Counted from the first letter of the stretch, positions 1 through 13,456 are shown. The stretch is DNA of 13,456 bases from Candidatus Eiseniibacteriota bacterium (GCA_031364845.1 JANLWX010000173.1:1-13456); one strand, 5' to 3'. Made by a program: numbers and translations. Notes: generated by a model not told the origin, from the letters alone.

Positions 1-353
1 TCGAGATCCGCGAGCGTGCGCTCGGGGAATTCTCCGGCCGCGCTCAGGAATGCCGCATGCGCAAGCAGCGACACGCGACCCTCGCGGCCGGTTGCGTCCA
101 GCTCGGAGCCAAGTCCGAAGGCGAGCGTCACCGAAACCCCCGGCGCCTGGCGGAGGTCACGCGTCACGACGCGCAGGCCGTTCGGAAGCTGCCACGAATC
201 GACCACGGTGGTATCGGCGAGCCGCCGCGCTGCGGCCTCAGCCGGTGCCGGTGCCGTAACGAGCACGGCGAGCAGCCCCGCGGCCAGCATGAGGGGAAGG
301 TGCTTGAAGCCGGCGAGCCGGGAGCATGGAGAATGCGGCGCGATAAGCCTCAC
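1..353 (-). CDS. Secreted M16 (insulinase) family peptidase-like protein, N-terminal part (runs off the left edge); probably non-catalytic
   Basis: Not in the ORF track because it has no stop in the window. Manual minus-strand translation from GTG at 353, with GAGG (complement of 361-364) upstream: MRLIAPHSPCSRLAGFKHLPLMLAAGLLAVLVTAPAPAEAAARRLADTTVVDSWQLPNGLRVVTRDLRQAPGVSVTLAFGLGSELDATGREGRVSLLAHAAFLSAAGEFPERTLADL. It has a hydrophobic signal segment and the M16 N-terminal pattern LPNGLRVV...GS..D..G.EG...LL.H..F. An alternative in-frame ATG is at 290. Confidence 0.8.
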   Translation of the reverse strand, partial: MRLIAPHSPCSRLAGFKHLPLMLAAGLLAVLVTAPAPAEAAARRLADTTVVDSWQLPNGLRVVTRDLRQAPGVSVTLAFGLGSELDATGREGRVSLLAHAAFLSAAGEFPERTLADL

Positions 354-456
354 GCGGGAACCTCACTGGTATCGGGAATGGACGACCGGGAGCGGGGAGA
401 ATCCTAGCACGGCCCGCGCGTGATTGGACGAAGTTGGCGCGTGGAATGACCCCGGC

Positions 457-494: not shown

Positions 495-1058
495 ATGGCC
501 TTGGTCGATGAAGGCGAAGTCAGACGTCTGGTGCGCCAGGCGGTCGAGCGCGCGCTCGCGGAGCAACCGGCTCCGTCAACGCCAGCTCCGGCCCCCGGTG
601 CGACCGCAGCGCGCCGTGTGGCGATCGGCTCGGACCACGGCGGGTTCCCACTCAAGGAAGTCCTCAAGCGCTACCTGACTGAGGATCTGGGCTACGAAGT
701 GAGGGATTGCGGCACCCACTCGACCGAAGCCGTCGACTATCCCGATTTCGCGGCGGCGGTGGCGCGCGAAGTCGCAAGCGGGCGCTGCGTGAAGGGCGTG
801 GTGATCGACGCGGCAGGTATCGGCTCGACGATGGCGGCCAACAAGGTCGCGGGCGCGCGCTGTGCGCTTTGCCACGACGACGCCACCGTGCTCAATGCGC
901 GCGAACACAATGACGCGAACATCCTCGCACTCGGATCCCGGGTCGTGAATCGCGGTCTCGCCAGCAGCATGGTGCGGCTGTTTCTCTCCACATCGTTCGG
1001 CGGCGGGCGCCACGAGCGCCGCGTTCAGAAGATCATGGCCCTCGAGCGCGGCCAGTGA
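495..1058 (+). CDS. rpiB: Ribose-5-phosphate isomerase B (RpiB/LacAB family) with N-terminal amphipathic extension
   Basis: Motifs AIGSDHGG, DYPD, GIGSTMAANKVAGARCALC, AREHNDANILALG and FGGGRHERRV. About 40 extra N-terminal residues (helix plus Pro/Ala linker). Confidence 0.93.
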   Translation: MALVDEGEVRRLVRQAVERALAEQPAPSTPAPAPGATAARRVAIGSDHGGFPLKEVLKRYLTEDLGYEVRDCGTHSTEAVDYPDFAAAVAREVASGRCVKGVVIDAAGIGSTMAANKVAGARCALCHDDATVLNAREHNDANILALGSRVVNRGLASSMVRLFLSTSFGGGRHERRVQKIMALERGQ

Positions 1059-1083
1059 GCGGATCAACCCAGGAGAGCCCTGC

Positions 1084-2157
1084 ATGAGGATGACCCAGCA
1101 CGTCATCGAGCGACTTCCGAAGACCGATCTCCACTGTCACCTCGACGGCTGTCTGCGCCCGCGCACCATCCTCGAACTCGCCGATCTGCAGGGCGTGCGG
1201 CTTCCGACGCGAAATCTGCCCCAGCTCACCCGGATTCTCGAAGCGGGCAAGCGCACCCGCAATCTCGCCGACTACCTCAAGATCTTCGACTACACGCTGA
1301 GCGTGATGCAGGAGCGCGACGCGCTCTACCGCGTCGCGTGGGAACTGGTCGAGGATGCGGCCGCGGAGAACGTGCGGCATCTCGAGGTGCGTTACTCGCC
1401 GATCCTCCATCGCATGAAGCGTCTGCCCTACGATCAGATCGTCGAGACCGTGATCAAGGGACTCGCGGACTCGGGTAAGAAGCACAATGTCTCGACCGGA
1501 GTCATCATCTGCGGCATCCGCTCGATGGATCCGCGCAAGTCGGCGGCACTCGCCGAACTTGCGGTCGAGTACAAACATCGCGGCGTGCTCGGGTTCGATC
1601 TCGCGGGCCAGGAGAAGGACTATCCGGCCAAGGCACACCGCGCCGCGTTCCAGATCGTGATCAAGAACAACGTGAACTCGACCGTTCACGGCGGCGAAGC
1701 GTTCGGGCCCGAGAGCATCGCGCAGGCACTGCACTACTGCGGCGCGCATCGGATCGGGCACGGCACACGGCTGATCGAGTCGCCGGATCTGCTGCGCTTC
1801 GTCAACGATCACCGCATTCCGCTCGAGGTGTGCCTGACCTCGAACGTCCAGACCCGCGCGGTACGCACGCTCAAGGAGCATCCGTTCCGCGATTACTTCC
1901 GGCTCGGGCTGCGGGTCACACTCAACACCGACAACCGGCTGATGTCGGCGACGACCGTGAGCAAGGAGCTGGCACTCGCGTCGCGCACGTTCCGGCTCAA
2001 CCCCTACGAGATGAAGCGGATCATCATCAACGGCTTCAAGAGCTCGTTCCTGCCGTACGCGCAGAAGGCCCGGATGCTGCGTGAGGTGAACCTCGAGATC
2101 GACCGTGTGTTCATGGAGGAGTACCCGGAGGAGTACGACCGGCGAGCGAGCTACTGA
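1084..2157 (+). CDS. add: Adenosine deaminase family protein
   Basis: Motifs LPKTDLHCHLDG (metal-binding HxH), EVRYSP, GFDLAGQE, TVHGGE, RIGHG, LEVCLTSN and NTDNRLMS. SD AGGAGA at 1071-1076. Confidence 0.93.
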   Translation: MRMTQHVIERLPKTDLHCHLDGCLRPRTILELADLQGVRLPTRNLPQLTRILEAGKRTRNLADYLKIFDYTLSVMQERDALYRVAWELVEDAAAENVRHLEVRYSPILHRMKRLPYDQIVETVIKGLADSGKKHNVSTGVIICGIRSMDPRKSAALAELAVEYKHRGVLGFDLAGQEKDYPAKAHRAAFQIVIKNNVNSTVHGGEAFGPESIAQALHYCGAHRIGHGTRLIESPDLLRFVNDHRIPLEVCLTSNVQTRAVRTLKEHPFRDYFRLGLRVTLNTDNRLMSATTVSKELALASRTFRLNPYEMKRIIINGFKSSFLPYAQKARMLREVNLEIDRVFMEEYPEEYDRRASY

Positions 2158-2224
2158 GCCGACGGGTGGTATCGACGACTGGACGTCGCGCCCGGAACGC
2201 GCTGTGATGATTGCGGTAAATTGC

Positions 2225-2252
2225 TTGACCGCGTCCGGGCTTCTGGTAGCTT
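2225..2252 (+). promoter_or_regulatory. Putative sigma70-type promoter (extended -10) for the TBDR operon
   Basis: TTGACC (2225-2230), 16-bp spacer ending TGG, TAGCTT (2247-2252), located in the 127-bp gap between add and the TBDR ATG at 2285. Confidence 0.5.
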
Positions 2253-2284
2253 CGGCAATCTCCATCCTCCAACCCGGCCAACGA

Positions 2285-5086
2285 ATGCTCCGATCCCGAA
2301 AACTTTCGCAGCTCCTGACGCTCATCGCGCTCGTTCTCCTTCCCGTGCTCGCGCACGCGCAGGACAAGGGCACGATTGCGGGCCGCGTGACCGACAAGAA
2401 AACGGGTCACGCGATTCCGTTCGCGAACGTGGCGGTGATCGGCGCCCAGCGCGGCGCGCTCACCAGCTCCGAAGGCGACTACGTCGTGACCGGCGTGCCG
2501 GTCGGGACGTGGGAGGTCAAGGTCCAGTACCTGGGCTACGAGCCCGGCGTGCGGGCCGGTGTGGTGGTCGCCGCCGGCAAGTCGACCCCGGTCAACTTCC
2601 TGCTCCAGGACATCGTGGTGAGCCAGGTCAAGACCGTCGAGGTCACGGCCGAGCGCCGCCTGGTCGAAGTGAAGCAGGGCACGACGATCCGCAGTGTGGG
2701 GGCGAGCGAGATCCGCAACCTCCCGGTCCAGACCATCGGCGAAGTGCTCCAGCAGCAGGCCGGCATCAACACCGAGAACGATCAGATCCACGTGCGCGGC
2801 GGCCGCGCGGACGAAACCATCTTCGTCGTGAACGGCGTGGCGAACCGCGATCTGGTGACCGGCCAGTCGACGGCGGGCCAGTTGAACGCGCGCTCGGTGT
2901 CCGAGGTCAACGTGGCGACTGGCGCCTACGACGTGCGCTACGGTAACGCGCTCTCGGGCGTGGTCGAGATCAAGCTCAAGGAGGGTGGCGACCGGCTCGC
3001 AGGCGGCATCACGATGACGAGCGGCACCTTCGGCGGACGCGCGTTCCAGGGTGTGATCGGCGGCCCGGACCCGCTGCTCGGTCCGCTGTTCCACGCGATC
3101 GGACTCAAGGGCTCGGTCGCTTCGATCCTCGATGTGTCGGGCAACACGTACGAGACACGGTTCCTCGCGAACCCGAGCGGCAATTGGGCGAGCGGCATGT
3201 TCAACGGCGGCTCGCGCCCGCGTCCGCGGCTGCGCTCGAGCTATGAGGACAACTTCTTCGGACGCAAGTTCACCTACGGCGATTTCTTCTCGCCTGCGGC
3301 CGACAACCGCTGGTCGGCGCGCCTCGGGGTCACATGGAAGCCGAGCAACGTCGATCGTGTTTCGATGAACTTCTCGAAGCGCATCGGGATCGACCAGGGA
3401 TTCAGCCGCACGTTCATCAACGCGACCGGCGACCAACAGGATCCGGCCTATCCCTGGATCTGGGACCACCGCATCGATCGCGCGCAGACGATCTTCGAGG
3501 ACAACGCGCAGTCCTCGATCGAATGGCGCCGCTCGCTCTCGACCTCGGGCTACACCACGTTCCAGCTTTCGCGCTACTTCTTCGCGCAGCGCGAGGACGT
3601 CGCGGGCCAGCAGTGGCCGGAGTTCACCCAGCCCGACGATCGCTCGGCGTTTCCCGACACCACGGATGCGCGCCGCGACGACTACTTCATCGACTCGGGC
3701 GACGATGACACCTGGCAGGACCGCCGCACGCTCACCTACGCGCTCGAGTGGGGACTCACACAGCGTATCAAGCGCCACGAACTCGAGTTCGGCTTCGAGC
3801 ACCAGTTGCAGAGCGTGCAGTACCTGACCATCCAGGATCCGTGGATCTTCGATCCCGACGGGCTCGGACGCGCGCACGATCTGTGGCAGGTGCATCCGTG
3901 GGTCGGAAACTTCTATCTGCGCGACCGGCTCGAATACGAAGGCTTCACCGCGAACATCGGCGTGCGCGGGGACTACTGGTTCCTGGGGCGCGAGGCCGAG
4001 GTCGCACTCGCCGACACCGCGAACCCCAACATCACGTCCGACACACGCAACGCGTTCTACGACAAGACCCATGACTTCTTCGGGCGGCGCTACAAGTTCA
4101 ACCTGTCGCCGCGCGTGATCGTGGCCCACCCGATCACCGAGAACAGCAGCTTCTTCTTCAACTACGGCCAGTTCACGCAAAACCCCTCGTATCGCTACGT
4201 GTATTCCAAGCTCACGTCGATCTCGAGCGAGTCGTTCCCGCTGCTCGGCAACCCGAACATCAATCCGCAGGTGTCGGTGAACTACGAAGTCGGCGCGAAG
4301 CATCAGTTCCTGCCGCGCGCCGCGGTCAACGTGTCGTTCTTCGTGAAGGACGTCTACGACTATCCGACCGCGACCCGCTTCGAGGTCACCGAAGGAACCA
4401 CCGGCAACCCGGTTCCGATCTTCGTGTACCTGAACGGCCACTTCGCGCGCTCGAAGGGCTTCGAGATCGAATTCGAGAAGCGCCGCAGCAGCCACTGGGC
4501 CGGCAAGCTCACCTACACGTTCCAGCAGACCAAGGGCAAGTCGAGCGATGCGAACGAGCAGAAGGTGGTGCAGGCCGAAGGCGGAGACGCGTCCGAGACC
4601 CGGCTGTCCGAGACGTTCGTGAACTGGAATCGCCCGCACAAGCTGTCGGCGTCGTTCGATCTGCGCTACGACGACGAAGCTCCGGATGTGATGAAGTGGT
4701 TCAAGCACTCGGGCTTCAACCTGTTCGTCCAGGGAATTTCGGGCCGTCCCTACACGCCGTCGGATCTGCGCGGCGACGCGTCGGGCTCGCCCAATTCCAA
4801 GAACGCGTTGTTCCAGATCACGACCGACATGCGCGTGAATCGCTATGTGAAGATCGGCGGCCGCCGTCTCGACCTGTCGCTGGCCGGCACCAACGTGTTC
4901 GGCAATCAGATCATCTATCGCGTCGATCCGCAGACCGGCAGAGGCCGCGTGTTCGGGGAAGGCTCCTTCGACCCCGACAATCCGTTCCTCGACGTCAACG
5001 ACTACGTGCGCGTTTCGCAGCTGGACGATCCGTCCAACTACGGGCCGGGCGCGCAGTGGAGGGTGTCGCTCGACTATGACTTCTAG
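2285..5086 (+). CDS. TonB-dependent outer membrane receptor with N-terminal carboxypeptidase-regulatory-like domain (933 aa)
   Basis: Start moved from 2105 to the ATG at 2285, which gives the signal peptide MLRSRKLSQLLTLIALVLLPVLAHA. It is followed by GTIAGRVTDKKTG..IPFANV (CarboxypepD_reg-like), a TonB-box-like VEVTAERR, plug motifs IHVRGGRADE and GAYDVRYGNALSGVV, barrel motifs SPRV and GNPNINPQ.SVNYEVG, and a C-terminal beta-signal VSLDYDF. Confidence 0.93.
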   Translation: MLRSRKLSQLLTLIALVLLPVLAHAQDKGTIAGRVTDKKTGHAIPFANVAVIGAQRGALTSSEGDYVVTGVPVGTWEVKVQYLGYEPGVRAGVVVAAGKSTPVNFLLQDIVVSQVKTVEVTAERRLVEVKQGTTIRSVGASEIRNLPVQTIGEVLQQQAGINTENDQIHVRGGRADETIFVVNGVANRDLVTGQSTAGQLNARSVSEVNVATGAYDVRYGNALSGVVEIKLKEGGDRLAGGITMTSGTFGGRAFQGVIGGPDPLLGPLFHAIGLKGSVASILDVSGNTYETRFLANPSGNWASGMFNGGSRPRPRLRSSYEDNFFGRKFTYGDFFSPAADNRWSARLGVTWKPSNVDRVSMNFSKRIGIDQGFSRTFINATGDQQDPAYPWIWDHRIDRAQTIFEDNAQSSIEWRRSLSTSGYTTFQLSRYFFAQREDVAGQQWPEFTQPDDRSAFPDTTDARRDDYFIDSGDDDTWQDRRTLTYALEWGLTQRIKRHELEFGFEHQLQSVQYLTIQDPWIFDPDGLGRAHDLWQVHPWVGNFYLRDRLEYEGFTANIGVRGDYWFLGREAEVALADTANPNITSDTRNAFYDKTHDFFGRRYKFNLSPRVIVAHPITENSSFFFNYGQFTQNPSYRYVYSKLTSISSESFPLLGNPNINPQVSVNYEVGAKHQFLPRAAVNVSFFVKDVYDYPTATRFEVTEGTTGNPVPIFVYLNGHFARSKGFEIEFEKRRSSHWAGKLTYTFQQTKGKSSDANEQKVVQAEGGDASETRLSETFVNWNRPHKLSASFDLRYDDEAPDVMKWFKHSGFNLFVQGISGRPYTPSDLRGDASGSPNSKNALFQITTDMRVNRYVKIGGRRLDLSLAGTNVFGNQIIYRVDPQTGRGRVFGEGSFDPDNPFLDVNDYVRVSQLDDPSNYGPGAQWRVSLDYDF

Positions 5087-6194
5087 GCGGAAGCGTCTGA
5101 GGACGTCGATTGCTGCGTTGGCTGCGTCGCTCGTCACTGCGACGTATCTCACGATACGTCTCGCTCCTCGCTCCTTGCCGCCTTGCACTCGACGCCCTCA
5201 GACGCTTCCGCCGTGCCTCGGCGTTTTGCTTCTGGTCGCGTGCGCCGCGACGAATACGGCACATGCGCAGTTCTCGCTGGGTGAGCAGCGTGCGGGGACC
5301 TCGTCGGGGACGTTCCTCAAGATCGGGATCGGTGCGCGCGCGATCGGACTTGGCGAGGCGTTCGTCGCGGTCGCCAACGATCCGACGGCGGTGTACTGGA
5401 ATCCGGCGGGGCTCGCCTCGATGCAGCGCCAGGAGATCTCGCTCAACCACGCGTCGTGGCCCGGGGACGTGAACTACGAGCACATCAGCTATGTGCTGCC
5501 GGTGCGCCGGCTCGGCGGATCGCTTGGCTTCCAGATCGGGGCGCTCAGTACCGAGATCGACGAGACCACCGAGTTCCAGCCGTTCGGAACCGGGCGCTCG
5601 TTCTTCTATTCCGACTTCATCGCGGGCGCCGCCTATGCGCGGCGCTGGACCGACAAGCTCCTGATCGGCGCGGGCGTGAAGTACGTGCGCGAGGATCTGG
5701 GCTCCGACGTCGGCGGGCCGACCTCGAACGCGATCCTGGTCGACATCGGATCGATCTACTACCTCGGTTACGGCAGCGTGCGCATCGCGACGTCGCTGTC
5801 GAACTTCGGCTCGGTGTTCAAGCCGGGCGGTCAGTACGAGTCGCCGGTCACCGGGGAAGTGCGGACCTACGATCCGTTCGATCCACCCACCATTTTTCGC
5901 TACGGCATCGCGTTCGAACCGATCGAGAACGCTTCGCAGCGGCTCACGACGTCGTTCGAGGTGAATCAGCCGGCGGACAACTCACAGGTCATGAAGGTCG
6001 GTCTCGAGTGGACATGGGAGCGCCGCGTGGCATTGCGCAGCGGCTACAACTTCAGCTCCGACGATTTCAAGTACTCGGCCGGCGCCGGCTTCTACGCGTC
6101 GATCGGCCAGTCACTGGCCGAGATCGACTACGCCTACACGCACGCAGAGTTCCTCGAAGCGGTGCACCGCGTGTCGCTCGGACTGCGGTTCTGA
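5076..6194 (+). CDS. PorV/PorQ-family (FadL-like) outer membrane beta-barrel; start uncertain because of the inserted palindromic element
   Basis: Family signature FLKIGIGARAIGLGEAFVAVANDPTAVYWNPAGLA and C-terminal beta-signal HRVSLGLRF. Signal-peptidase-like site AHA/QF. The ATG at 5076 overlaps the TBDR 3' end. Confidence 0.88.
   Translation: MTSRRKRLRTSIAALAASLVTATYLTIRLAPRSLPPCTRRPQTLPPCLGVLLLVACAATNTAHAQFSLGEQRAGTSSGTFLKIGIGARAIGLGEAFVAVANDPTAVYWNPAGLASMQRQEISLNHASWPGDVNYEHISYVLPVRRLGGSLGFQIGALSTEIDETTEFQPFGTGRSFFYSDFIAGAAYARRWTDKLLIGAGVKYVREDLGSDVGGPTSNAILVDIGSIYYLGYGSVRIATSLSNFGSVFKPGGQYESPVTGEVRTYDPFDPPTIFRYGIAFEPIENASQRLTTSFEVNQPADNSQVMKVGLEWTWERRVALRSGYNFSSDDFKYSAGAGFYASIGQSLAEIDYAYTHAEFLEAVHRVSLGLRF
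5086..5212. mobile_element. 127-bp palindromic MITE-like element (ERIC/RPE-like)
   Basis: Terminal inverted repeats of 28 bp, 26/28 identical: GGCGGAAGCGTCTGAGGACGTCGATTGC (5086-5113) and GCACTCGACGCCCTCAGACGCTTCCGCC (5185-5212). Perfect central hairpin GACGTATC-TCAC-GATACGTC (5141-5160). TA lies immediately left (5084-5085). Confidence 0.8.
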
Positions 6195-7411
6195 TGCGCG
6201 CGACCGAACGCATAAAGGCGGCGACGCCCGCGACCGCCGCGGCCGCCGCGGTTCTGGGGATCGCGCTGGGGGCGGCACTGCTCGCAGGCTGCGGAGCCCA
6301 GTTCGAACTGCCGACCGAGCGCCGCCAGGATCGCGCGATCCCGAGCGATCGCAGTTATCAGATGGAAGCGACGTGGACCGGCATGTCCGGCGTGAACGAC
6401 ATCCTGCTCACGCCTTCGGGTCAGTTATTCGTGGTGTTCAACCATGGCGGCTCGGGTACCTCATCGCGCGGCGAGGTGCAGGCGTTCGCGCGGCTCGCGA
6501 GCGGCGGCAACCAGACCCCGCTGCCCAACTATCCGTTCCGCACGTTGTTCAACCCGGTCGCGATCACCCAGGGCGGCAGCAACCTGTTCGTGCTCGATCA
6601 GGGCGACACGTGTCTCGCGCGCCGCAATCCCGCGAACGGCTCGTGTGGCGCCGATGAGACGTGGAACAACGACGTCGTCGACCTGCTGCACTACTGGCGT
6701 GTGCGCGAATACAACCTGGTCGGCACGGGCGGCGGAGCGCTGGATACGGTGAGTACGTTCACCGACACGAGCATGGCATTCGTCGACGGTATCGCGGCCG
6801 ACGATCTCGGGCGCGTCTACCTGTCGGGAACCATCATTCGCTACGTCGTGGATCAGATCGACACGCGCATCTTCACGCGCACGTTCTTGAAGCGGATCCA
6901 GCGCTACGCGCGCGGGCCGCGCTATCCGGGTGTGACCCCCAACGATCCCAATATGCCGGGTGCCGCGTGGCACCGCGACACGACGTGGATCATCGAGGAC
7001 GGCGACGGCGGCGGCTTCATCGGCGATCCGCGTGGCATGCACTGGCGCTCGGCGAACGGGACCCGCGCGCTCTACGAAGCGGACGCGTTCAAGAACCAGG
7101 CACAGAAGCTCTACGACAACATCTCGAGCACGCCGTTCTTCGTCGTCGACAGCGATGATCTCGGCGAGCGCATGGCCTCCCCGACCGACGTGTTCGCCGA
7201 CGAGGCCGGAGCGCTCTACGTCGCTGACACCGGCAATCGCCGGGTGCTGCGTTATCTGCCGGACGGCTCGTTCATCCAGCGCGTCGATGTCGAACGCGAC
7301 GCACAGGGACAGGAGCTGGTCGCGCCGGTTGCGGTGGCGGCGGACAGTTCGCTCGTATTCGTCGGGGACCGGTCGCTCGGCAAGGTCATTCGTTATCGGA
7401 GGCGCCAGTGA
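6194..7411 (+). CDS. Lipoprotein with NHL-repeat beta-propeller (405 aa)
   Basis: The likely start is the ATG at 6194, overlapping the PorV stop (TGATG), rather than 5456. Lipobox LLAG-C33. NHL-like repeats: PVAITQGGSNLFVLDQG, GIAADDLGRVYLSG, PTDVFADEAGALYVADTGNRRVLRY, PVAVAADSSLVFVGDRSLGKVIRY. Confidence 0.85.
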   Translation: MRATERIKAATPATAAAAAVLGIALGAALLAGCGAQFELPTERRQDRAIPSDRSYQMEATWTGMSGVNDILLTPSGQLFVVFNHGGSGTSSRGEVQAFARLASGGNQTPLPNYPFRTLFNPVAITQGGSNLFVLDQGDTCLARRNPANGSCGADETWNNDVVDLLHYWRVREYNLVGTGGGALDTVSTFTDTSMAFVDGIAADDLGRVYLSGTIIRYVVDQIDTRIFTRTFLKRIQRYARGPRYPGVTPNDPNMPGAAWHRDTTWIIEDGDGGGFIGDPRGMHWRSANGTRALYEADAFKNQAQKLYDNISSTPFFVVDSDDLGERMASPTDVFADEAGALYVADTGNRRVLRYLPDGSFIQRVDVERDAQGQELVAPVAVAADSSLVFVGDRSLGKVIRYRRRQ

Positions 7412-9501
7412 GTTCTCACGCACACCGGGCGGCGGCATCCGCGCTCGTGGCGCTGGCCCTGACCATGGCGCCCGGCGTCTTCCATTCCGCCGCACGCGCG
7501 GATTCCGACCACCGTCCGTCGCCTGCGGAGCGCAACAGCGCCAACCGCGCTGCCGAGGCCCAGGCCGCCGGGGACTCGGTGCGGTTCTCACTGCGCGTCG
7601 CCAACAACAATCTGGTCGGCATCACGATCACGAACTACGGTTTCATCGGCAACAACTTCGTCTCGCGCGCGCCGTCGCTCGAATACCCGCTTGGCACCGG
7701 CTACGAGCACATGGTGCGCGGCGGGTTGTGGATCGGCGCCCAGGCGGTCGATGATTCGGGTGCATTCACCGGTGTCACGACCGGCACCGTGGACGGCGCT
7801 CAGGGCTCGGCGAGTGCGGGGGCCACCGAGTACACGCCGGCCGGGCTCGACGTGCGGGTGCGCTCGACGCTGCCGAATCAGCGGTTCTTCCACCCGGACG
7901 CGGTGAGCGAGCTCGACTTCATCTCGCAATTCAGCGACCGCCCCGGCAAGCGGCTGTCGACCAGTTCCGAACCTCATCGCTCGATGAATCTGCTGGTGCG
8001 CCAGGAGAACTACATGTGGTCGTTCTCCGACTACGCGCACGTCGTCATCTTCCACTACGTGATCACGAACCTCGGCCAGCCGCTCCAGAATGCGCATGTC
8101 GGCCTGTACGCCGAGTTCGCGAGCGGCCCCAAGAATCTCTACAGCATCTGGCCGCCGAGCAGCGCCGGCAGCACGATCGGCAGCTGGTTCCGCAAGAAGC
8201 AGATCGCCTTCGACGATTCGCTGCGCCTGATGCGCGAGCATTATTGCATCGGCCAGCCGATTCCCGACGCATGTGCCTACGAAGTGGTTCCCGCGTGGAT
8301 GGGCATCAAGCTGCTCGGCGTGAAGCCCGGCAACGTCGCCGACACGCTCGACAAGAAGGTGACGTTCGCCGCGTGGGACTATTCGCCCGGCAACGCTCAG
8401 CGCGACGAGGACCGCGAGCGCTACGCCATCATGAGTTCGGGGCTGATCCAGCCGGTCGAAGGCGACTCGCTGCTGCCCGGTACCGGCGATCCGGTCACGC
8501 TGCTCTCGGTCGGCCCGTTCGATGTCATCAACCCCGGCGACAGCATCTCGGTCGACTTCGCGATCGTCGGCGGCCGCGACACCGAAGACACCTTCGGCGA
8601 GATCCTGCCCAACAGCATCCAGGAGCACTCGCGGTTCGCCCAGCGCGCGTACGATCGCAACTACATTGTCCCGATTCCCCCGCCGTCGCCGCGCTTCAAG
8701 GTGGTTTCGCGCGCCGGCGCGCTCGATCTCTACTGGGACGACTCGCCCGAGCTGATTCAGGATCCGACGAGCCCGATCGCCCAGGACTTCGAGGGCTATC
8801 GCGTCTACATCGGCGACGACCGCAACGACCTCAGCCGCATCGCGCAGTTCGACAAGGCGACCGCACCCAACGATACGACCGGCTTCAACACCGGATTCGC
8901 AGCGGTCAGGCTCGCCACACCGGTGACGTTCGACGGCGTCACGTACCAGTACAAGTACACGATCCCCGCGCTGCGCAACGGCTTCAAGTACTTCGTGGCC
9001 GTGACCGCCTACGATCTCGGCAACGTCGAGATCGAGTCGCTCGAGAGCGGCATCAGCCAGAACAAGACGCTCGCGATTCCGGCTCCGGGGCCCGGCGAGA
9101 GTGCGGGTGGAGGCAAGGTCACCGTGTTCCCGAATCCCTATCGCGTCGAAGCGCGCTGGGATCAGGGTTCGCGCGTTCGCGACCACTACCTGTGGTTCGC
9201 GGGTCTGCCCGAAGTGTGCACGATCCGGATCTACACGCTGTCGGGCGATCTCGTGTTCGAGACGCCGTTCAATGGCGCCACGTATCACGGTGATGGGACG
9301 CGCGGCATCTACGATCCGCGCCGCGAGCTCGACGTCGATCCGCCGACGCTGTCGGGCCGCAGCTACGGATGGAACATGATCACACGCGAAGGCCAGGCGG
9401 TGGCGACCGGGCTTTATCTGTTCTCGGTCGAGGACGCTTCGGGCAAGCGCGAAGTCGGCAAGTTCCTGATCGTGAAATCCGATCGGGAGGACTTCAAGTG
9501 A
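7408..9501 (+). CDS. Secreted protein with uncharacterized N-terminal domain, FN3-like domain and T9SS-type-A/FlgD-Ig-like C-terminal domain
   Basis: The GTG start overlaps the upstream TGA (GTGA), followed by a hydrophobic signal. N-terminal region has ITNYGFIG...EYPLGTG.EH...GGLWIGA. FN3-like region has PPPSP...LYWD...DFEGYRVY...YFVAVTAYD...SLES. CTD has VFPNPY...IRIYTLSGDLV...WNMITREGQAVATGLYLF...GKFLIVK. Confidence 0.82.
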   Translation: MSSHAHRAAASALVALALTMAPGVFHSAARADSDHRPSPAERNSANRAAEAQAAGDSVRFSLRVANNNLVGITITNYGFIGNNFVSRAPSLEYPLGTGYEHMVRGGLWIGAQAVDDSGAFTGVTTGTVDGAQGSASAGATEYTPAGLDVRVRSTLPNQRFFHPDAVSELDFISQFSDRPGKRLSTSSEPHRSMNLLVRQENYMWSFSDYAHVVIFHYVITNLGQPLQNAHVGLYAEFASGPKNLYSIWPPSSAGSTIGSWFRKKQIAFDDSLRLMREHYCIGQPIPDACAYEVVPAWMGIKLLGVKPGNVADTLDKKVTFAAWDYSPGNAQRDEDRERYAIMSSGLIQPVEGDSLLPGTGDPVTLLSVGPFDVINPGDSISVDFAIVGGRDTEDTFGEILPNSIQEHSRFAQRAYDRNYIVPIPPPSPRFKVVSRAGALDLYWDDSPELIQDPTSPIAQDFEGYRVYIGDDRNDLSRIAQFDKATAPNDTTGFNTGFAAVRLATPVTFDGVTYQYKYTIPALRNGFKYFVAVTAYDLGNVEIESLESGISQNKTLAIPAPGPGESAGGGKVTVFPNPYRVEARWDQGSRVRDHYLWFAGLPEVCTIRIYTLSGDLVFETPFNGATYHGDGTRGIYDPRRELDVDPPTLSGRSYGWNMITREGQAVATGLYLFSVEDASGKREVGKFLIVKSDREDFK

Positions 9502-10934
9502 GACGCCTCGGATTCGCCACGTTGCTTCTGGCACTCGCCGCGTTCGGATGCAGCGGCCGCACCGCACTCGTCCCGCGCCTGGCGCCCGAAACCACCGTGT
9601 TCGTGCAGGGCGACGTCGACACCGTGAATCACGTGGTCGAGATCTTCTGGTTCGGCACCGATCCCGATGGTGTCGTCGCTGCCTACGAACTGCGGCTTTT
9701 GAATCCCTCAGCACCGGCCGAGAGTGCTTGGGTTCGTACGACACGCACTGATTCGACCTTCAGGGTGTTTACTCCGACGGGCGCCACGAGCCCGGTGTTC
9801 GAAGTGCGCGCGATCGACAACGATGGCCTGACCGATGCCACGCCTGCCCGGCAGTTGTTCTTCTTCGATAACGAACCTCCGACCGTGACGATCGGTCCCT
9901 ATCCTCAGATCTCGAATGAGACCTACGCCTCGCTCACTCTGTCATGGACAGCGTCCGATCCCGATGGCGAGTCGTCGATCATGCGCTTCCGCGTGTGGCT
10001 CGACGGCAATGAGGCGAATCCCCACATTCTGTCGGGAACCACGTTCACCGTTCCGACCGCAGACTTCTTCGACGGCGCCGAGGTTCGCAGCGGCACGCGT
10101 ACGGTATTCGTTCAGCCGATCGACGACGGCGGGCTGGTGGGTGCGACGGTGAGCCGCTCGTGGACCGTCCGCCCGACCGTGACCGGCCCTCCGGGCACGC
10201 GGGCCCGGCTGCTGCTGATCGACGACGTCTCGACGTCCAACACGCTCAACACGCGCACCGACACCCTGTGGGCGAATGCGGTCGCCAACCAGCTCGAGCC
10301 GGGCACGTGGAGTGTTCTGCGACTTCAGAGCGTCCAGCCGTTCCAGTCGGCCGAAGACGCGCGCCAGACTTTTTCGCTGTACGACGCCGTGATCTGGTAT
10401 CGCGGCACCGAAAGCTCGTTTTCGACCGTGCTGCGGGACGTGCAGGGCGGGATCGCCCCGGCGATCGAGGACGGGCACAGCTTCGTCGTCGAGGGTCTCA
10501 ATCTCGTGAACGGAGTGGGGCGCTCGGGCCCGCTCAGCCAGGAATTCGTGTCGCGCGTCTACGAGACCGACTTCCTCTACAAGTTTTTCGAGTCCGGGAT
10601 GGAGGATTCGTCGGTGTCGTGGGGAGTCAACGGCGGCGGAGTGTTCCGCAGCGCCACCGACAGCCTGCGGATCGCGATCATCACGCTCGGGCTGCGTGGT
10701 TTTGCGGTGCGCGACACCCAGGATGTCCTGCTGTGGGCGCGCGCGGGAACCCTGTCCCAGCCCCACGACTTCGACATTCCGGTGGCGCTGCTGGTGCCAC
10801 ATGCCTCGGGGGCCAAGGCTGGAATCATCTCGATCCCCGTCGTCACGACCTCCCAGCCTGCCGCCGGCGGGACATTTCCCCAGCGGGCGACCGCATTTGT
10901 TAACAAAGTTGTCCAAGCCTTACGAAAACCCTAG
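9498..10934 (+). CDS. Lipoprotein with two tandem Ig/FN3-like domains and a C-terminal alpha/beta domain (478 aa)
   Basis: The likely start is the GTG at 9498 (GTGA overlap; SD GGGAGG at 9485-9490). MRRLGFATLLLALAAFG-C18 is a lipoprotein signal. The motif W...DPDG...(R/Q)(A/P)ID(N/D).G occurs twice. The C-terminal region has LLLIDD...YDAVIWYRG. Confidence 0.82.
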   Translation: MRRLGFATLLLALAAFGCSGRTALVPRLAPETTVFVQGDVDTVNHVVEIFWFGTDPDGVVAAYELRLLNPSAPAESAWVRTTRTDSTFRVFTPTGATSPVFEVRAIDNDGLTDATPARQLFFFDNEPPTVTIGPYPQISNETYASLTLSWTASDPDGESSIMRFRVWLDGNEANPHILSGTTFTVPTADFFDGAEVRSGTRTVFVQPIDDGGLVGATVSRSWTVRPTVTGPPGTRARLLLIDDVSTSNTLNTRTDTLWANAVANQLEPGTWSVLRLQSVQPFQSAEDARQTFSLYDAVIWYRGTESSFSTVLRDVQGGIAPAIEDGHSFVVEGLNLVNGVGRSGPLSQEFVSRVYETDFLYKFFESGMEDSSVSWGVNGGGVFRSATDSLRIAIITLGLRGFAVRDTQDVLLWARAGTLSQPHDFDIPVALLVPHASGAKAGIISIPVVTTSQPAAGGTFPQRATAFVNKVVQALRKP

Positions 10935-11016
10935 CCGCCAATCCGTCTTACTTCCTCCTGACGCCGTTCCACGGGTAGCGGGGTCCCAGAAAAGACTGCG
11001 TCCACAATCAAAGACC

Positions 11017-11046
11017 TTGGGACGCCGGGCCCGCTCTTGCTAGAAT
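11017..11046 (+). promoter_or_regulatory. Putative sigma70-type extended -10 promoter for the OB-fold protein gene
   Basis: TTGGGA (11017-11022), 18-bp spacer ending TGC, TAGAAT (11041-11046), in an intergenic region that is less GC-rich than the flanking genes. Confidence 0.55.
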
Positions 11047-11210
11047 TGCCCCACGCATCAAGGATTCGCAAAGCAACATCCCGGAACGATGGGCTGGCAA
11101 CAAGTTAGCAAGCAGCCCCGGGGATCGATCAGGAGGACGCCGCGCCTTCGAAGATTTCCCCCATCACCATGCCTGTATCCACTCACCACCCGACCCAGAG
11201 GGAAACCGAA

Positions 11211-13319
11211 ATGCGCAAGCTTTTCACCACAATGCTAGGGGCTGCGATGCTGGCCTGCTGTGTGGCATCCGCTGAAGCGGAAACGTACCCGCCCGGACCG
11301 GGGGGCACATGCCCGGATTCCGTGAGTGTCTTCAAAATTCAGAATCCCGCCGCCGTCTGTCATCCCGCCACGCTCGATACCGTCCTCGGAGTCGGGGGTA
11401 TCATCACCGGCTTCGATGCGAAGGCCAGCGCCTATGGATTCTACATTCAGAATCGCGCCAACCTCGCCACTCCCTCAAACGCCCATTACACCGGCATCGA
11501 TGTCTTCACTGGGGCGACCAACTACAACGCTGTGCCCTTCGGCCTCGCGCTCGGAGACAGCGTCGTGGTCTACGGCCGGACCCAGGAGTTTCCGGCGACC
11601 GACGGTGAAACGGAAATTGAAGGTCTGGACGGTGTCCAAGGCACCAACGACATCACCATTCGCAAGGTAAGTTCCGGGAACCCGCTGCCGGCCTTCATCA
11701 CCGGCACCACGAATACGTTCCGCCACCTCCCGAATAACCCCAATGGCGAGCTGTACGAGGGTATGCTGGTGCGCATTCCGACTGCGATGCGAGTCGCGCG
11801 TGTCTACGTTGCTCCCAATGGCACGCAGCAAATCCCCTTCGGCTCGTTCATGCTAGTGAATCAGACCGGGTCGGCCGTGGACTCGGTGCTGATCGACGGC
11901 AACACGCTGGCGACGTTCACGCCGCCGGCGCTCGGGACGACCGTGGCTTCCGTCCAGGGCATCATGAACCAGCGCGCCTCCAGTGCGGCGAGTTCCTACC
12001 GCATTCAGATTCGCGACGGCAACGACATCGTCGTGGCGACTCCGCCGAATCTCAACGATGCGTTCTCCATTGTGGACAACAAGGTGCGTGTGCTGTTCGA
12101 CCGCAACATCACGCTCGCGAGCGCCGAGAACGAAGCGAATTACTCGCTCTCCTCGCTGGGCACGGTAAATCTCGCCACCCAGGTCAATGGCACCACCGTC
12201 GATCTCACGATCACCAACGGACTCGCCGACGGCGATGTCGAGGGCGTGACGGTCAACGGTCTGGTGTCCTCCGGCAGCGGGATCACGATGACGACGCCAC
12301 AAAGTCGCGACTTCGTGAATGGTGTGGTTGATCCCTCGGTAGTCCAGGCGGCCGATCCGGCTGCACTCTCCGCTTCGCCATGCGAAGATCGCTCGCGCTA
12401 TGCTGGCACGGGCGCCGCGTTCGGCACACTGCGGGTTTCGGTTCGCGGCGTCAGCAGCGGAAGCTACGGATCGCTGTATTACCTGGAAGGTGCGAGCGGT
12501 GGCGTTCGTAATGCCATCTCGGTGTTCGGTCCGACTCAGCCGCTCATTGATGGCCGCAAGTACCTCGTCGTGGGATACGTTCAGGAGTTCGGCAGCGGCG
12601 CTCCGAATGGCCGCGAGACCGAGATCGTGAGCACCGTGTACATCGTGGACGAGGGCGTGGCCCCGATTCCGTCTCCGATCGTCCAGACGATCGGCGTGCT
12701 CGCCGACACGACCTGCGACAGCCCCTCGCCGCAGTTGTTCACGCATCGGGCGACCGGTGAGGATTACGAAGGTGTGCTGGTCAAGGTCATTCAGGGCCGC
12801 ATCACCGAAGAGCGCGCCGCGGGTGAGGGCTTCTTCCTCGCCGGACCGTACGGTGTGTATTCGGACACGATCCTGGTCCAGAACTCCCAGGGCTCCTACA
12901 CGTTCGATCCGGACTCGGGCGCGGTGGTCAACGTCACCGGCATTCTGTCCTCGAACTCTCAGAGCAGCCGGCGCTTCCGCATCCTGCCCCGCAGCAACGC
13001 CGACATCGTGGTCGTGGGACAGAACACGGGCGTCGATGGCAAGCCGCGTTCGATCAGCTTCGCGGTGACCCCGAACCCGGCGCGTATCGCGCGTATGTCG
13101 TTCTCGCTGCCGTTCGAGGCTGATGTCGACCTCGGCGTCTTCGATCTGTCGGGACGCAAGATCACGACGATCGCCAAGGGCCGCCTGGATGCGGGCAGCT
13201 ATTCGCGTGAGTGGAGCGGTCTGGACTCGCGCGGCAAGTCGGTCGGCGCGGGCATGTACTTCTACAAGCTGCGCGTGAACGACGAAGTCCGTACGGTTCG
13301 CGGCATCAAGCTCAACTAG
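11211..13319 (+). CDS. Secreted protein with duplicated ExeM/YhcR-like OB-fold modules, central Ig-like domain and FlgD-Ig/T9SS-like CTD (702 aa)
   Basis: ATG at 11211 with SD GAGGG (11198-11202) and signal peptide MRKLFTTMLGAAMLACCVASAEA. OB-fold motifs GFYIQ...GIDVF...GDSVVVYGRTQEF...ETEI and GELYEGMLVRI recur as AISVF...YLVVGYVQEF...ETEI, GEDYEGVLVKV and RILPRSNADI. CTD has PNP...VFDLSGRKI...WSGLDSRGKSVGAGMYFYKL. Confidence 0.85.
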   Translation: MRKLFTTMLGAAMLACCVASAEAETYPPGPGGTCPDSVSVFKIQNPAAVCHPATLDTVLGVGGIITGFDAKASAYGFYIQNRANLATPSNAHYTGIDVFTGATNYNAVPFGLALGDSVVVYGRTQEFPATDGETEIEGLDGVQGTNDITIRKVSSGNPLPAFITGTTNTFRHLPNNPNGELYEGMLVRIPTAMRVARVYVAPNGTQQIPFGSFMLVNQTGSAVDSVLIDGNTLATFTPPALGTTVASVQGIMNQRASSAASSYRIQIRDGNDIVVATPPNLNDAFSIVDNKVRVLFDRNITLASAENEANYSLSSLGTVNLATQVNGTTVDLTITNGLADGDVEGVTVNGLVSSGSGITMTTPQSRDFVNGVVDPSVVQAADPAALSASPCEDRSRYAGTGAAFGTLRVSVRGVSSGSYGSLYYLEGASGGVRNAISVFGPTQPLIDGRKYLVVGYVQEFGSGAPNGRETEIVSTVYIVDEGVAPIPSPIVQTIGVLADTTCDSPSPQLFTHRATGEDYEGVLVKVIQGRITEERAAGEGFFLAGPYGVYSDTILVQNSQGSYTFDPDSGAVVNVTGILSSNSQSSRRFRILPRSNADIVVVGQNTGVDGKPRSISFAVTPNPARIARMSFSLPFEADVDLGVFDLSGRKITTIAKGRLDAGSYSREWSGLDSRGKSVGAGMYFYKLRVNDEVRTVRGIKLN

Positions 13320-13339
13320 CCACACGCTGGGTAGTCACG

Positions 13340-13456
13340 GCGGGCGGGGGGGAGGGGGACCCCCGCCGGCGGGGGATTATACCACCGGGGGTTACCCCCC
13401 GCCCCCGGGGCCGCCCCCCGCCGCCCCCCCCCCCCCAACCGCCCCCCCCCCCCCCC
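13340..13456. other. Low-complexity G/C-run tail, probably a low-quality contig end
   Basis: Abrupt switch to G-runs and then C-runs, ending in a ~15-nt poly-C at the window end, unlike the rest of the sequence. Confidence 0.65.

Follow-up and report, generated by a model that had tools for sequence, protein, structure and literature searches.

A conserved six-gene outer-membrane cassette beside nucleoside-salvage genes in Eisenbacteria, a candidate importer of extracellular nucleic acids

Gene content of the locus

The stretch of DNA analysed here (the window) is the whole 13,456-nt contig C9 of a Candidatus Eiseniibacteriota genome (G000; 4.6 Mb, 97% complete), in which gene calling combined with Pfam and NCBIfam profile searches placed eight plus-strand genes filling positions 495-13319. 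The series begins with an SPU-type RpiB-family gene (495..1058; PF02502 at E 1e-52, NCBIfam and alignment A3) and an adenosine deaminase gene, add (1084..2157; TIGR01430, 309 bits against a cut-off of 217), whose product retains the metal-binding and catalytic motifs and which is single-copy, with one tblastn match across the genome. The six genes that follow are the subject of this work: a TonB-dependent receptor with CarboxypepD_reg, Plug and barrel regions and without a SusD partner (2285..5086); a PorV/PorQ-family barrel (5076..6194; NF033709, 169 bits, cut-off 90); an NHL-repeat lipoprotein, likely a beta-propeller (6194..7411; lipobox at residues 30-33, NHL weak at E 0.001); a 697-aa protein with a type IX secretion system (T9SS) tail (7408..9501, the 7408 protein); a second lipoprotein of unassigned family with an FN3-like stretch (9498..10934; lipobox at residues 15-18); and a 702-aa OB-fold T9SS protein (11211..13319, the OB protein) with Big_5 and, over the cut-off, Por_Secre_tail. 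Successive stops and starts overlap throughout the five genes of 2285-10934, and the overlap of the PorV-family start with the receptor stop recurs in L002, L004, L016 and L020; the gap between the add and receptor genes is 127 nt, and that between the second lipoprotein and OB genes is 276 nt. A preliminary description of this DNA had placed co-oriented rpiB and add ahead of a receptor, PorV, lipoprotein and tail-protein operon followed by the OB protein, and this order was confirmed, with the addition of the second lipoprotein, which had been missed.

Conservation of the cassette

The conserved unit is the receptor, PorV-family barrel, NHL lipoprotein, T9SS-tail protein, second lipoprotein and OB-fold T9SS protein. 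A strong match to the 7408 protein was present in 51 of 60 relatives. Among 401 Bacteroidota genomes, 125 matched cassette-protein profile A1 at E<=1e-60, nearly always once, and in all 40 regions picked from these 125 for their long contigs the six genes stood in the order tail protein, OB protein, lipoprotein, receptor, PorV, NHL. Eisenbacteria carry the same six genes rearranged relative to this order, and distant metagenome contigs share the Bacteroidota order. The arrangement recurs throughout the class and in further phyla, and so is not due to chance. In one divergent cassette (L133; receptor, PorV, NHL and tail protein) the series ends in short broken open reading frames at the site expected for the lipoprotein and OB genes, next to an insertion-sequence integrase gene.

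We then considered rpiB and add, which the preliminary description had treated as members of the locus. Within 20 kb of the 7408 homolog, rpiB was found in 26/30 same-family, 6/13 same-order and 6/8 same-class genomes and add in 28/30, 4/13 and 1/8, respectively; apart from genome G054, the misses reflected other contigs or the lack of a match, and in genomes with two copies of a cassette protein the linked copy was counted, which favours linkage. Many Eisenbacteria (L031, L033, L043, L044, L046 and others) have a second 7408 copy of ~50% identity between add and the receptor; G000 is without one there, although C87:1013-2659 encodes a 548-aa protein with the same N-terminal domain. In 14 of 27 rows add lies directly against this second copy, at most 20 nt from its furthest in-frame start (6-275 nt by called starts), suggesting one transcript there. 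The linkage of add and rpiB thus held in Eisenbacteria and failed in Bacteroidota, where neither gene stood beside the cassette in any of the 40 loci: add and rpiB are Eisenbacteria-specific neighbours, and what the phyla share is the cassette of six genes, with the OB gene among them.

Genes recruited beside the cassette

A nuclease- or phosphodiesterase-family gene lay no more than two genes away in 24 of the 40 Bacteroidota loci, drawn from four unrelated families (EEP in 8, PLD-like with a T9SS tail in 5 further, Endonuclease I in 1 and Phosphodiest in 10; all EEP and PLD members and 3 of the 10 Phosphodiest members were scanned, the others assigned by cluster); these positives are related to one another and represent roughly four or five recruitments at the level of lineages, not 24. 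This is far above an expected background of ~2% per four flanking positions, our own estimate assuming ~3,500 genes per genome; each of five of these genomes had 11-20 matches to the four families combined. No such neighbour was found at any of ten paralogous loci, of which five form one ortholog group, four are without a receptor and two have a DNA-repair glycosylase. The sole Endonuclease I gene of G190 abuts the cassette, as does the sole Phosphodiest gene of G418. DUF5689 OB domains are fused to PLD and EEP proteins in L195, L196, L199 and L201, the DUF5689-EEP protein of L199 lying three genes away and not counted in the 24. On the distant metagenome contigs, an EEP-cluster gene stood directly upstream in 9 of 30 among the matches listed, with Pfam confirming EEP in L135 and not in L140 or L141; L143 carries two EEP genes, and L118 a deoxynucleoside kinase, a pyrimidine phosphorylase and a deoC-cluster gene.

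Nucleoside genes accompany the cassette in Eisenbacteria. The 5' part of a divergent conserved gene at the window start (1..353, minus strand) continues on contig C158 into genes for uridine kinase, thymidine kinase and a BMP-family nucleoside ABC transporter (labels from cluster representatives), and the order of kinases and transporter is unbroken in G001, G013 and G014. In G052, G053 and G055 deoC directly precedes the receptor; deoxynucleoside kinase, hpt, purine nucleoside phosphorylase and EutN genes lie near the cassette in G053 and G059, 5'-nucleotidase and ThyX genes in G054, and a PLD+DUF5689 T9SS protein in G038 and G058. In genome G020 (L004:13997-18190), the receptor is immediately preceded by a tandem pair of OB genes and a gene for an EEP protein that bears a T9SS-like tail. 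In the window genome itself, EEP and Endonuclease I homologs are encoded elsewhere (C44, C21). The enzyme families recruited are unrelated to one another, and the salvage genes of Eisenbacteria form a further, separate line. The co-location with nucleotide-catabolic genes that the preliminary description had anticipated was therefore seen in several lineages, as flanking nuclease-family, phosphodiesterase, nucleotidase, nucleoside-kinase, phosphorylase and deoC genes, and its enrichment relative to background and paralogous loci bore the expectation out.

The two T9SS-tail proteins

The OB protein (model predicted local distance difference test score, pLDDT, 87) contains a Big_5 Ig domain flanked by OB folds, which span model residues 13-135 and 424-582. 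The folds matched OB domains of RPA, Teb1, MCM and tRNA-synthetase anticodon type (VIA-align; Z 9.4-10.9, root-mean-square deviation (rmsd) 1.9-2.7 Å, 84-95 residues), Z values that indicate fold, not ligand; a second OB segment (model residues ~136-250) lies outside the listed structural rows and is drawn from sequence and secondary structure. Further matches of the protein were to an Ig domain of SbsC type (Z 14.7) and to the C-terminal domain of PorU (Z 11.5). The nuclease-associated OB folds claimed for this surface protein were recovered, both in the model and in a match to the ExeM/NucH N-terminal region (E 2e-8). Against the ESM Atlas, every match of the OB region fell below 0.9 and is a lead only. 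Low-GC marine homologs (L135:12083-15010, L152:12162-16046) have an N-terminal cytochrome c (PSCyt1) domain, and other homologs bear LTD or CBM56-like domains.

The OB protein profile aligned with DdbD-like DUF5689 lipoproteins (probability 95.7, E 9e-9, 188 columns), and DUF5689 was matched in 6 of 36 OB-protein homologs. DdbD belongs to ddbABCDEF, the characterised Bacteroides thetaiotaomicron DNA-utilization locus (Sharan et al., PNAS 2025, PMC12478041; bioRxiv 10.1101/2025.03.18.642099). Five of nine ddb-type loci hold a T9SS protein that matches the OB profile well beyond the tail (E 1e-35 to 1e-49).

The model of the 7408 protein (pLDDT 78.5) comprises an N-terminal beta-supersandwich, an FN3-like domain and a PorZ-like C-terminal domain, with no catalytic barrel. 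Its supersandwich resembled the non-catalytic N-domains of GH15, GH94 and GH116 enzymes (Z 17-20, rmsd 3-4 Å, 231-278 residues, 7-11% identity), and its C-terminal domain resembled that of PorZ (Z 12.3, rmsd 1.8 Å, 87 residues). Foldseek on both whole models returned mostly Ig/FN3 and supersandwich look-alikes at low TM-scores, and the homologs of the 7408 protein among the matches listed were close relatives only, hypothetical or nameless. The features of T9SS cargo, a signal peptide and a C-terminal sorting domain, are present; TIGR04183, the T9SS C-terminal domain, scored over its cut-off for the OB protein, as did SprA on contig C67 of the same genome.

Receptor, PorV-family barrel and lipoproteins

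Only two PDB sequences matched the receptor, both carboxypeptidase D and both to its N-terminal domain. Compared with eight DdbC-like barrels, defined as receptors next to a DUF5689 lipoprotein in a set without B. thetaiotaomicron's own sequence, the best BLAST match had E 7e-6 over the N-terminal 257 residues, whereas own-family paralogs gave E 1e-27 to 1e-72. In a midpoint-rooted FastTree of 39 receptors, from which the eight DdbC-like rows were left out as unalignable, 30 cassette rows split from nine paralogs with support 1.00. No match to SusD_RagB was found in the 97% complete genome and no carbohydrate-active enzyme (CAZyme) family in the window by Pfam scan, and on these two grounds a SusC/SusD polysaccharide-utilization locus was rejected.

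Paralogous trios of receptor, T9SS-tail protein and PorV occur in G000 (C60, C114, C46/C216) and elsewhere (L249-L256), one conserved before pfk/gap-pgk-tpi-secG and another surrounded by LacI, glucoamylase-like and sugar-transport genes. This three-gene set appears to be a general design for import without SusD in the phylum.

In the T9SS attachment complex, the barrels PorV and PorQ work with PorU and PorZ, PorQ holding PorZ at the surface. The cassette resembles this arrangement in having a PorV/PorQ-family barrel beside proteins with PorZ- and PorU-like C-terminal domains, and differs in that its barrel, one of about nine PorV-like genes in the genome, is a paralog fixed in an operon with a TonB receptor. 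A predicted complex of the receptor barrel and the PorV-family barrel scored 0.27 against a mark of 0.32. A dispersed palindromic repeat of ~127 nt with 28-nt terminal inverted repeats (5086..5212) lies in the 5' end of the PorV-family gene, where it adds ~40 residues to the signal-peptide region and keeps the frame; it has ~20 further matches in the genome, mostly intergenic, and is missing from orthologs. NHL repeats scored over the cut-off in homologs of the 6194-7411 lipoprotein, and the second lipoprotein fell at 0.98 with ESM Atlas clusters of Ignavibacteriota and Bacteroidota hypothetical proteins without a Pfam family.

RpiB and the SPU microcompartment

The window RpiB carries an encapsulation-peptide-like amphipathic helix at its N-terminus (~residues 5-23) followed by a Pro/Ala linker, an extension that in alignment A3 is present in cassette- and microcompartment-type copies and missing in the housekeeping copy L007. 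The hydrophobic moment of the helix was 0.42, and since other helices of the same protein are equal or higher, the moment alone is a weak indicator. At the catalytic-Cys column, 16 of 17 rows have Asp105 and the housekeeping row L007 has Cys. According to the accessible part of PMC11585597, the ribose-5-phosphate isomerase (RPI) of the SPU microcompartment carries an encapsulation peptide and no Cys in its active site, binds DeoC and has little isomerase activity, if any, and the compartment is proposed to use DNA breakdown products.

Other parts of such a compartment are present. The same genome has BMC and EutN shell genes and DeoC (C69) and aldehyde dehydrogenase (C82/C172), both with N-terminal extensions; the parts are spread over four contigs. 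It also has a deoB-cdd-deoC-pdp gene set and, on contig C84, a second RpiB gene without the extension. EutN was found in 51/61 genomes, and the relative G056 has a contiguous rpiB-deoC-shell-aldehyde dehydrogenase locus whose RpiB is 64% identical to that of the window. The window RpiB is taken as SPU type because of the encapsulation-peptide-like helix and the Asp at the catalytic-Cys site, and its gene is best read as a satellite SPU gene; by analogy, the protein is likely to be a packaging partner more than an isomerase. The preliminary description had RpiB feeding pentose phosphates into central metabolism, which is doubtful since the portion of PMC11585597 available to us reports little or no isomerase activity for the characterised SPU RPI; an ordinary pentose-phosphate isomerase was rejected on the Asp at the Cys column together with that report. 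The likeness to SPU extends to the helix and linker, the missing catalytic Cys, the extended DeoC and aldehyde dehydrogenase and the shell genes. The window genome differs in having the parts over four contigs and an RpiB beside an outer-membrane importer, and TonB is not mentioned in the accessible part of PMC11585597.

Relation to known systems

The cassette resembles ddb in its SusD-less TonB-dependent receptor, its DUF5689-type OB surface protein, its resemblance to a polysaccharide-utilization locus in overall logic, its secreted nucleases as neighbours and the deaminating catabolism downstream. The parts themselves differ. The relationship between the cassette receptor and DdbC-like barrels is no closer than superfamily level (13% identity, probability 55), and the gene after it encodes a PorV-family barrel rather than a DUF5689 lipoprotein (DdbD). 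The DUF5689-like module instead sits on a T9SS-tail protein four genes on, so that the domain is homologous to that of DdbD whereas the lipoprotein form and the position are not shared. The PorV-family barrel, the supersandwich T9SS protein and the two lipoproteins have no ddb counterpart, PMC12478041 mentions neither PorV nor T9SS, nucleases are variable neighbours of the cassette with none in the window, and the hosts are Eisenbacteria and non-gut lineages. We therefore rejected membership in ddb, given a receptor unlike DdbC, an OB module carried by a T9SS cargo protein and four fixed partners that have no equivalent there. As the OB protein is homologous to DdbD/DUF5689 while the receptor is not DdbC-like, the cassette would work like ddb without being a member of it. 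The statement in the preliminary description that no characterised system has this architecture was accordingly overtaken in one respect, ddbABCDEF being a characterised system of this kind, and stands in another, since ddb has a different receptor and no PorV or T9SS parts.

A pair in Riemerella anatipestifer, RA0C_RS04915/RS04920, likewise combines a CarboxypepD_reg barrel with a DUF5689 protein and, in the accessible part of PMC8459023, is proposed to bind and pass DNA. It belongs to the DdbC/DdbD family and serves transformation, whereas the cassette has another receptor and catabolic neighbours. No published description of the cassette was found in a search that took in few subscription articles and not the supplementary files, among which SPU Tables S1-S2 and ddb Table S1 may list Eisenbacteria or related loci, and the accessible parts of PMC8630151 and PMC11323493 do not describe it. 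The outer-membrane cassette is real and widely conserved, and appears to be undescribed.

Proposed function and alternatives

Because it is intact across distant lineages and repeatedly stands beside nuclease-family and nucleoside-breakdown genes, the cassette at 2285-13319 probably captures and imports extracellular DNA or RNA, with the salvage genes and SPU-type microcompartment of Eisenbacteria predicted to break the nucleosides down. The surface capture, import and catabolism of nucleic acids put forward in the preliminary description is thereby supported by genomic context and homology. In such a pathway, the two T9SS-tail proteins would be secreted by the type IX system, as their tail domains and the presence of SprA suggest, and the PorV-family barrel would likely hold the 7408 protein at the surface as PorQ holds PorZ. 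The OB protein, with its OB folds and DdbD homology, likely binds nucleic acid, which would be cut by secreted nucleases encoded beside the cassette in many lineages and here on C44/C21. Oligo- and mononucleotides would likely enter through the receptor via TonB, the two lipoproteins perhaps serving as surface partners that replace SusD. The 5'-nucleotidase, the BMP-family ABC transporter, adenosine and cytidine deaminases, phosphorylases and phosphopentomutase, all represented by genes, would then yield bases and (deoxy)ribose-5-phosphate. By analogy with PMC11585597, DeoC would split deoxyribose-5-phosphate inside the microcompartment.

Several observations weigh against this interpretation, which draws its support from genes and their context. 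No nuclease catalytic domain was found among the window proteins in Pfam and NCBIfam scans, three of the four OB segments are acidic, although most DdbD-like domains are acidic too, and the best folds of the 7408 protein are carbohydrate-enzyme domains. Sixteen of the 40 Bacteroidota loci have no nuclease- or phosphodiesterase-family gene within two genes, the others are the related recruitments noted above, and the 40 were picked for long contigs; neither add nor rpiB flanks the cassette in any of them. Even within Eisenbacteria add is mostly unlinked to the cassette at class level, rpiB and add in G054 lie distant from it on the same contig, and the linkage counts took the linked copy. None of 101 Latescibacterota-phylum genomes matched the profile at E<=1e-90, no PduL-type phosphotransacylase was found, and the paralogous trio on C114 lies among glycan genes. 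The EEP, PLD and Phosphodiest families include phospholipases, sphingomyelinases and other phosphodiesterases.

That breadth, since none of the three families is specific to nucleic acids, is the basis of one alternative, in which the cassette serves to recover phosphate or carbon from other phosphodiesters such as phospholipids, teichoic-acid-like polymers or nucleotide cofactors and the nucleoside link in Eisenbacteria is secondary. Consistent with this are a PhoD gene placed two genes ahead of the cassette in L187 and a patatin-Omp85 gene after it in L197 and L200, but Endonuclease I neighbours in L187 and L223, the DUF5689 OB domains fused to PLD and EEP proteins, the deoC, nucleoside-kinase and phosphorylase genes and the DdbD-like OB protein make it improbable. 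Comparably unlikely is a housekeeping envelope or glycan-binding surface assembly without a nucleic-acid substrate, its neighbours explained by clustering of T9SS cargo and vertical inheritance. The single copy and fixed order do resemble a core machine, the 7408 supersandwich has a carbohydrate-enzyme domain fold, Big_5 resembles the S-layer protein SbsC (Z 14.7) and LysM-transglycosylase genes precede the cassette in several loci; yet nucleic-acid genes that are not T9SS cargo (Phosphodiest, 5'-nucleotidase, deoC, kinases) were also recruited, the paralogous trios are without such neighbours, and the lack of a match in 276/401 Bacteroidota genomes shows that the cassette is not needed in all.

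Slightly less probable again is import of intact DNA for natural transformation, as for the Riemerella DdbC/DdbD homologs, with nutrition a side use. The accessible part of PMC8459023 reports the DdbD homolog RA0C_RS04920 and its barrel as essential for transformation, and the cassette is single-copy with a fixed order in a genome that has ComEC. However, the flanks scanned contain degradative and salvage genes and neither comEC nor dprA, the cassette receptor is not DdbC-like, and ComEC matches also occur in 10/14 control genomes.

There is about an even chance that the cassette is a second TonB route for taking up nucleic acids that spans phyla and is independent of both ddb and pilus uptake, in which a dedicated PorV paralog keeps T9SS proteins over a SusD-less receptor and which in Eisenbacteria forms the missing SPU front end. 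Extracellular DNA is a large pool of C, N and P in soils, sediments and water, and to our knowledge few Gram-negative uptake systems for it are known. The cassette would then complete a path from environmental DNA to an organelle in Eisenbacteria, supply the substrate route lacking in the SPU microcompartment hypothesis, and provide a case in which T9SS-anchored partners take over the role of SusD beside a TonB receptor. Being single-copy and present in roughly one third of the Bacteroidota genomes sampled and in most Eisenbacteria, it would also mark DNA/RNA recyclers among uncultured lineages.

Other features of the window

Within the window there were no Rfam matches at E<=1, and promoter and terminator scans were not above chance (3 sites against 1.5+/-1.2 expected, and 5 against 6.7 expected, respectively). 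Long antisense open reading frames were rejected as high-GC shadows, the gene caller having picked the plus-strand genes instead. Positions 13320-13456 are low-complexity G/C runs at the contig end that resemble an assembly artefact. The end of C158 (23728-24115) overlaps window positions 1-391 at 92.8% identity over 391 nt, and near-identical genes lie on two other contigs (C46:1084-1881 and C216:468-1265), together pointing to a strain mixture in the assembly.

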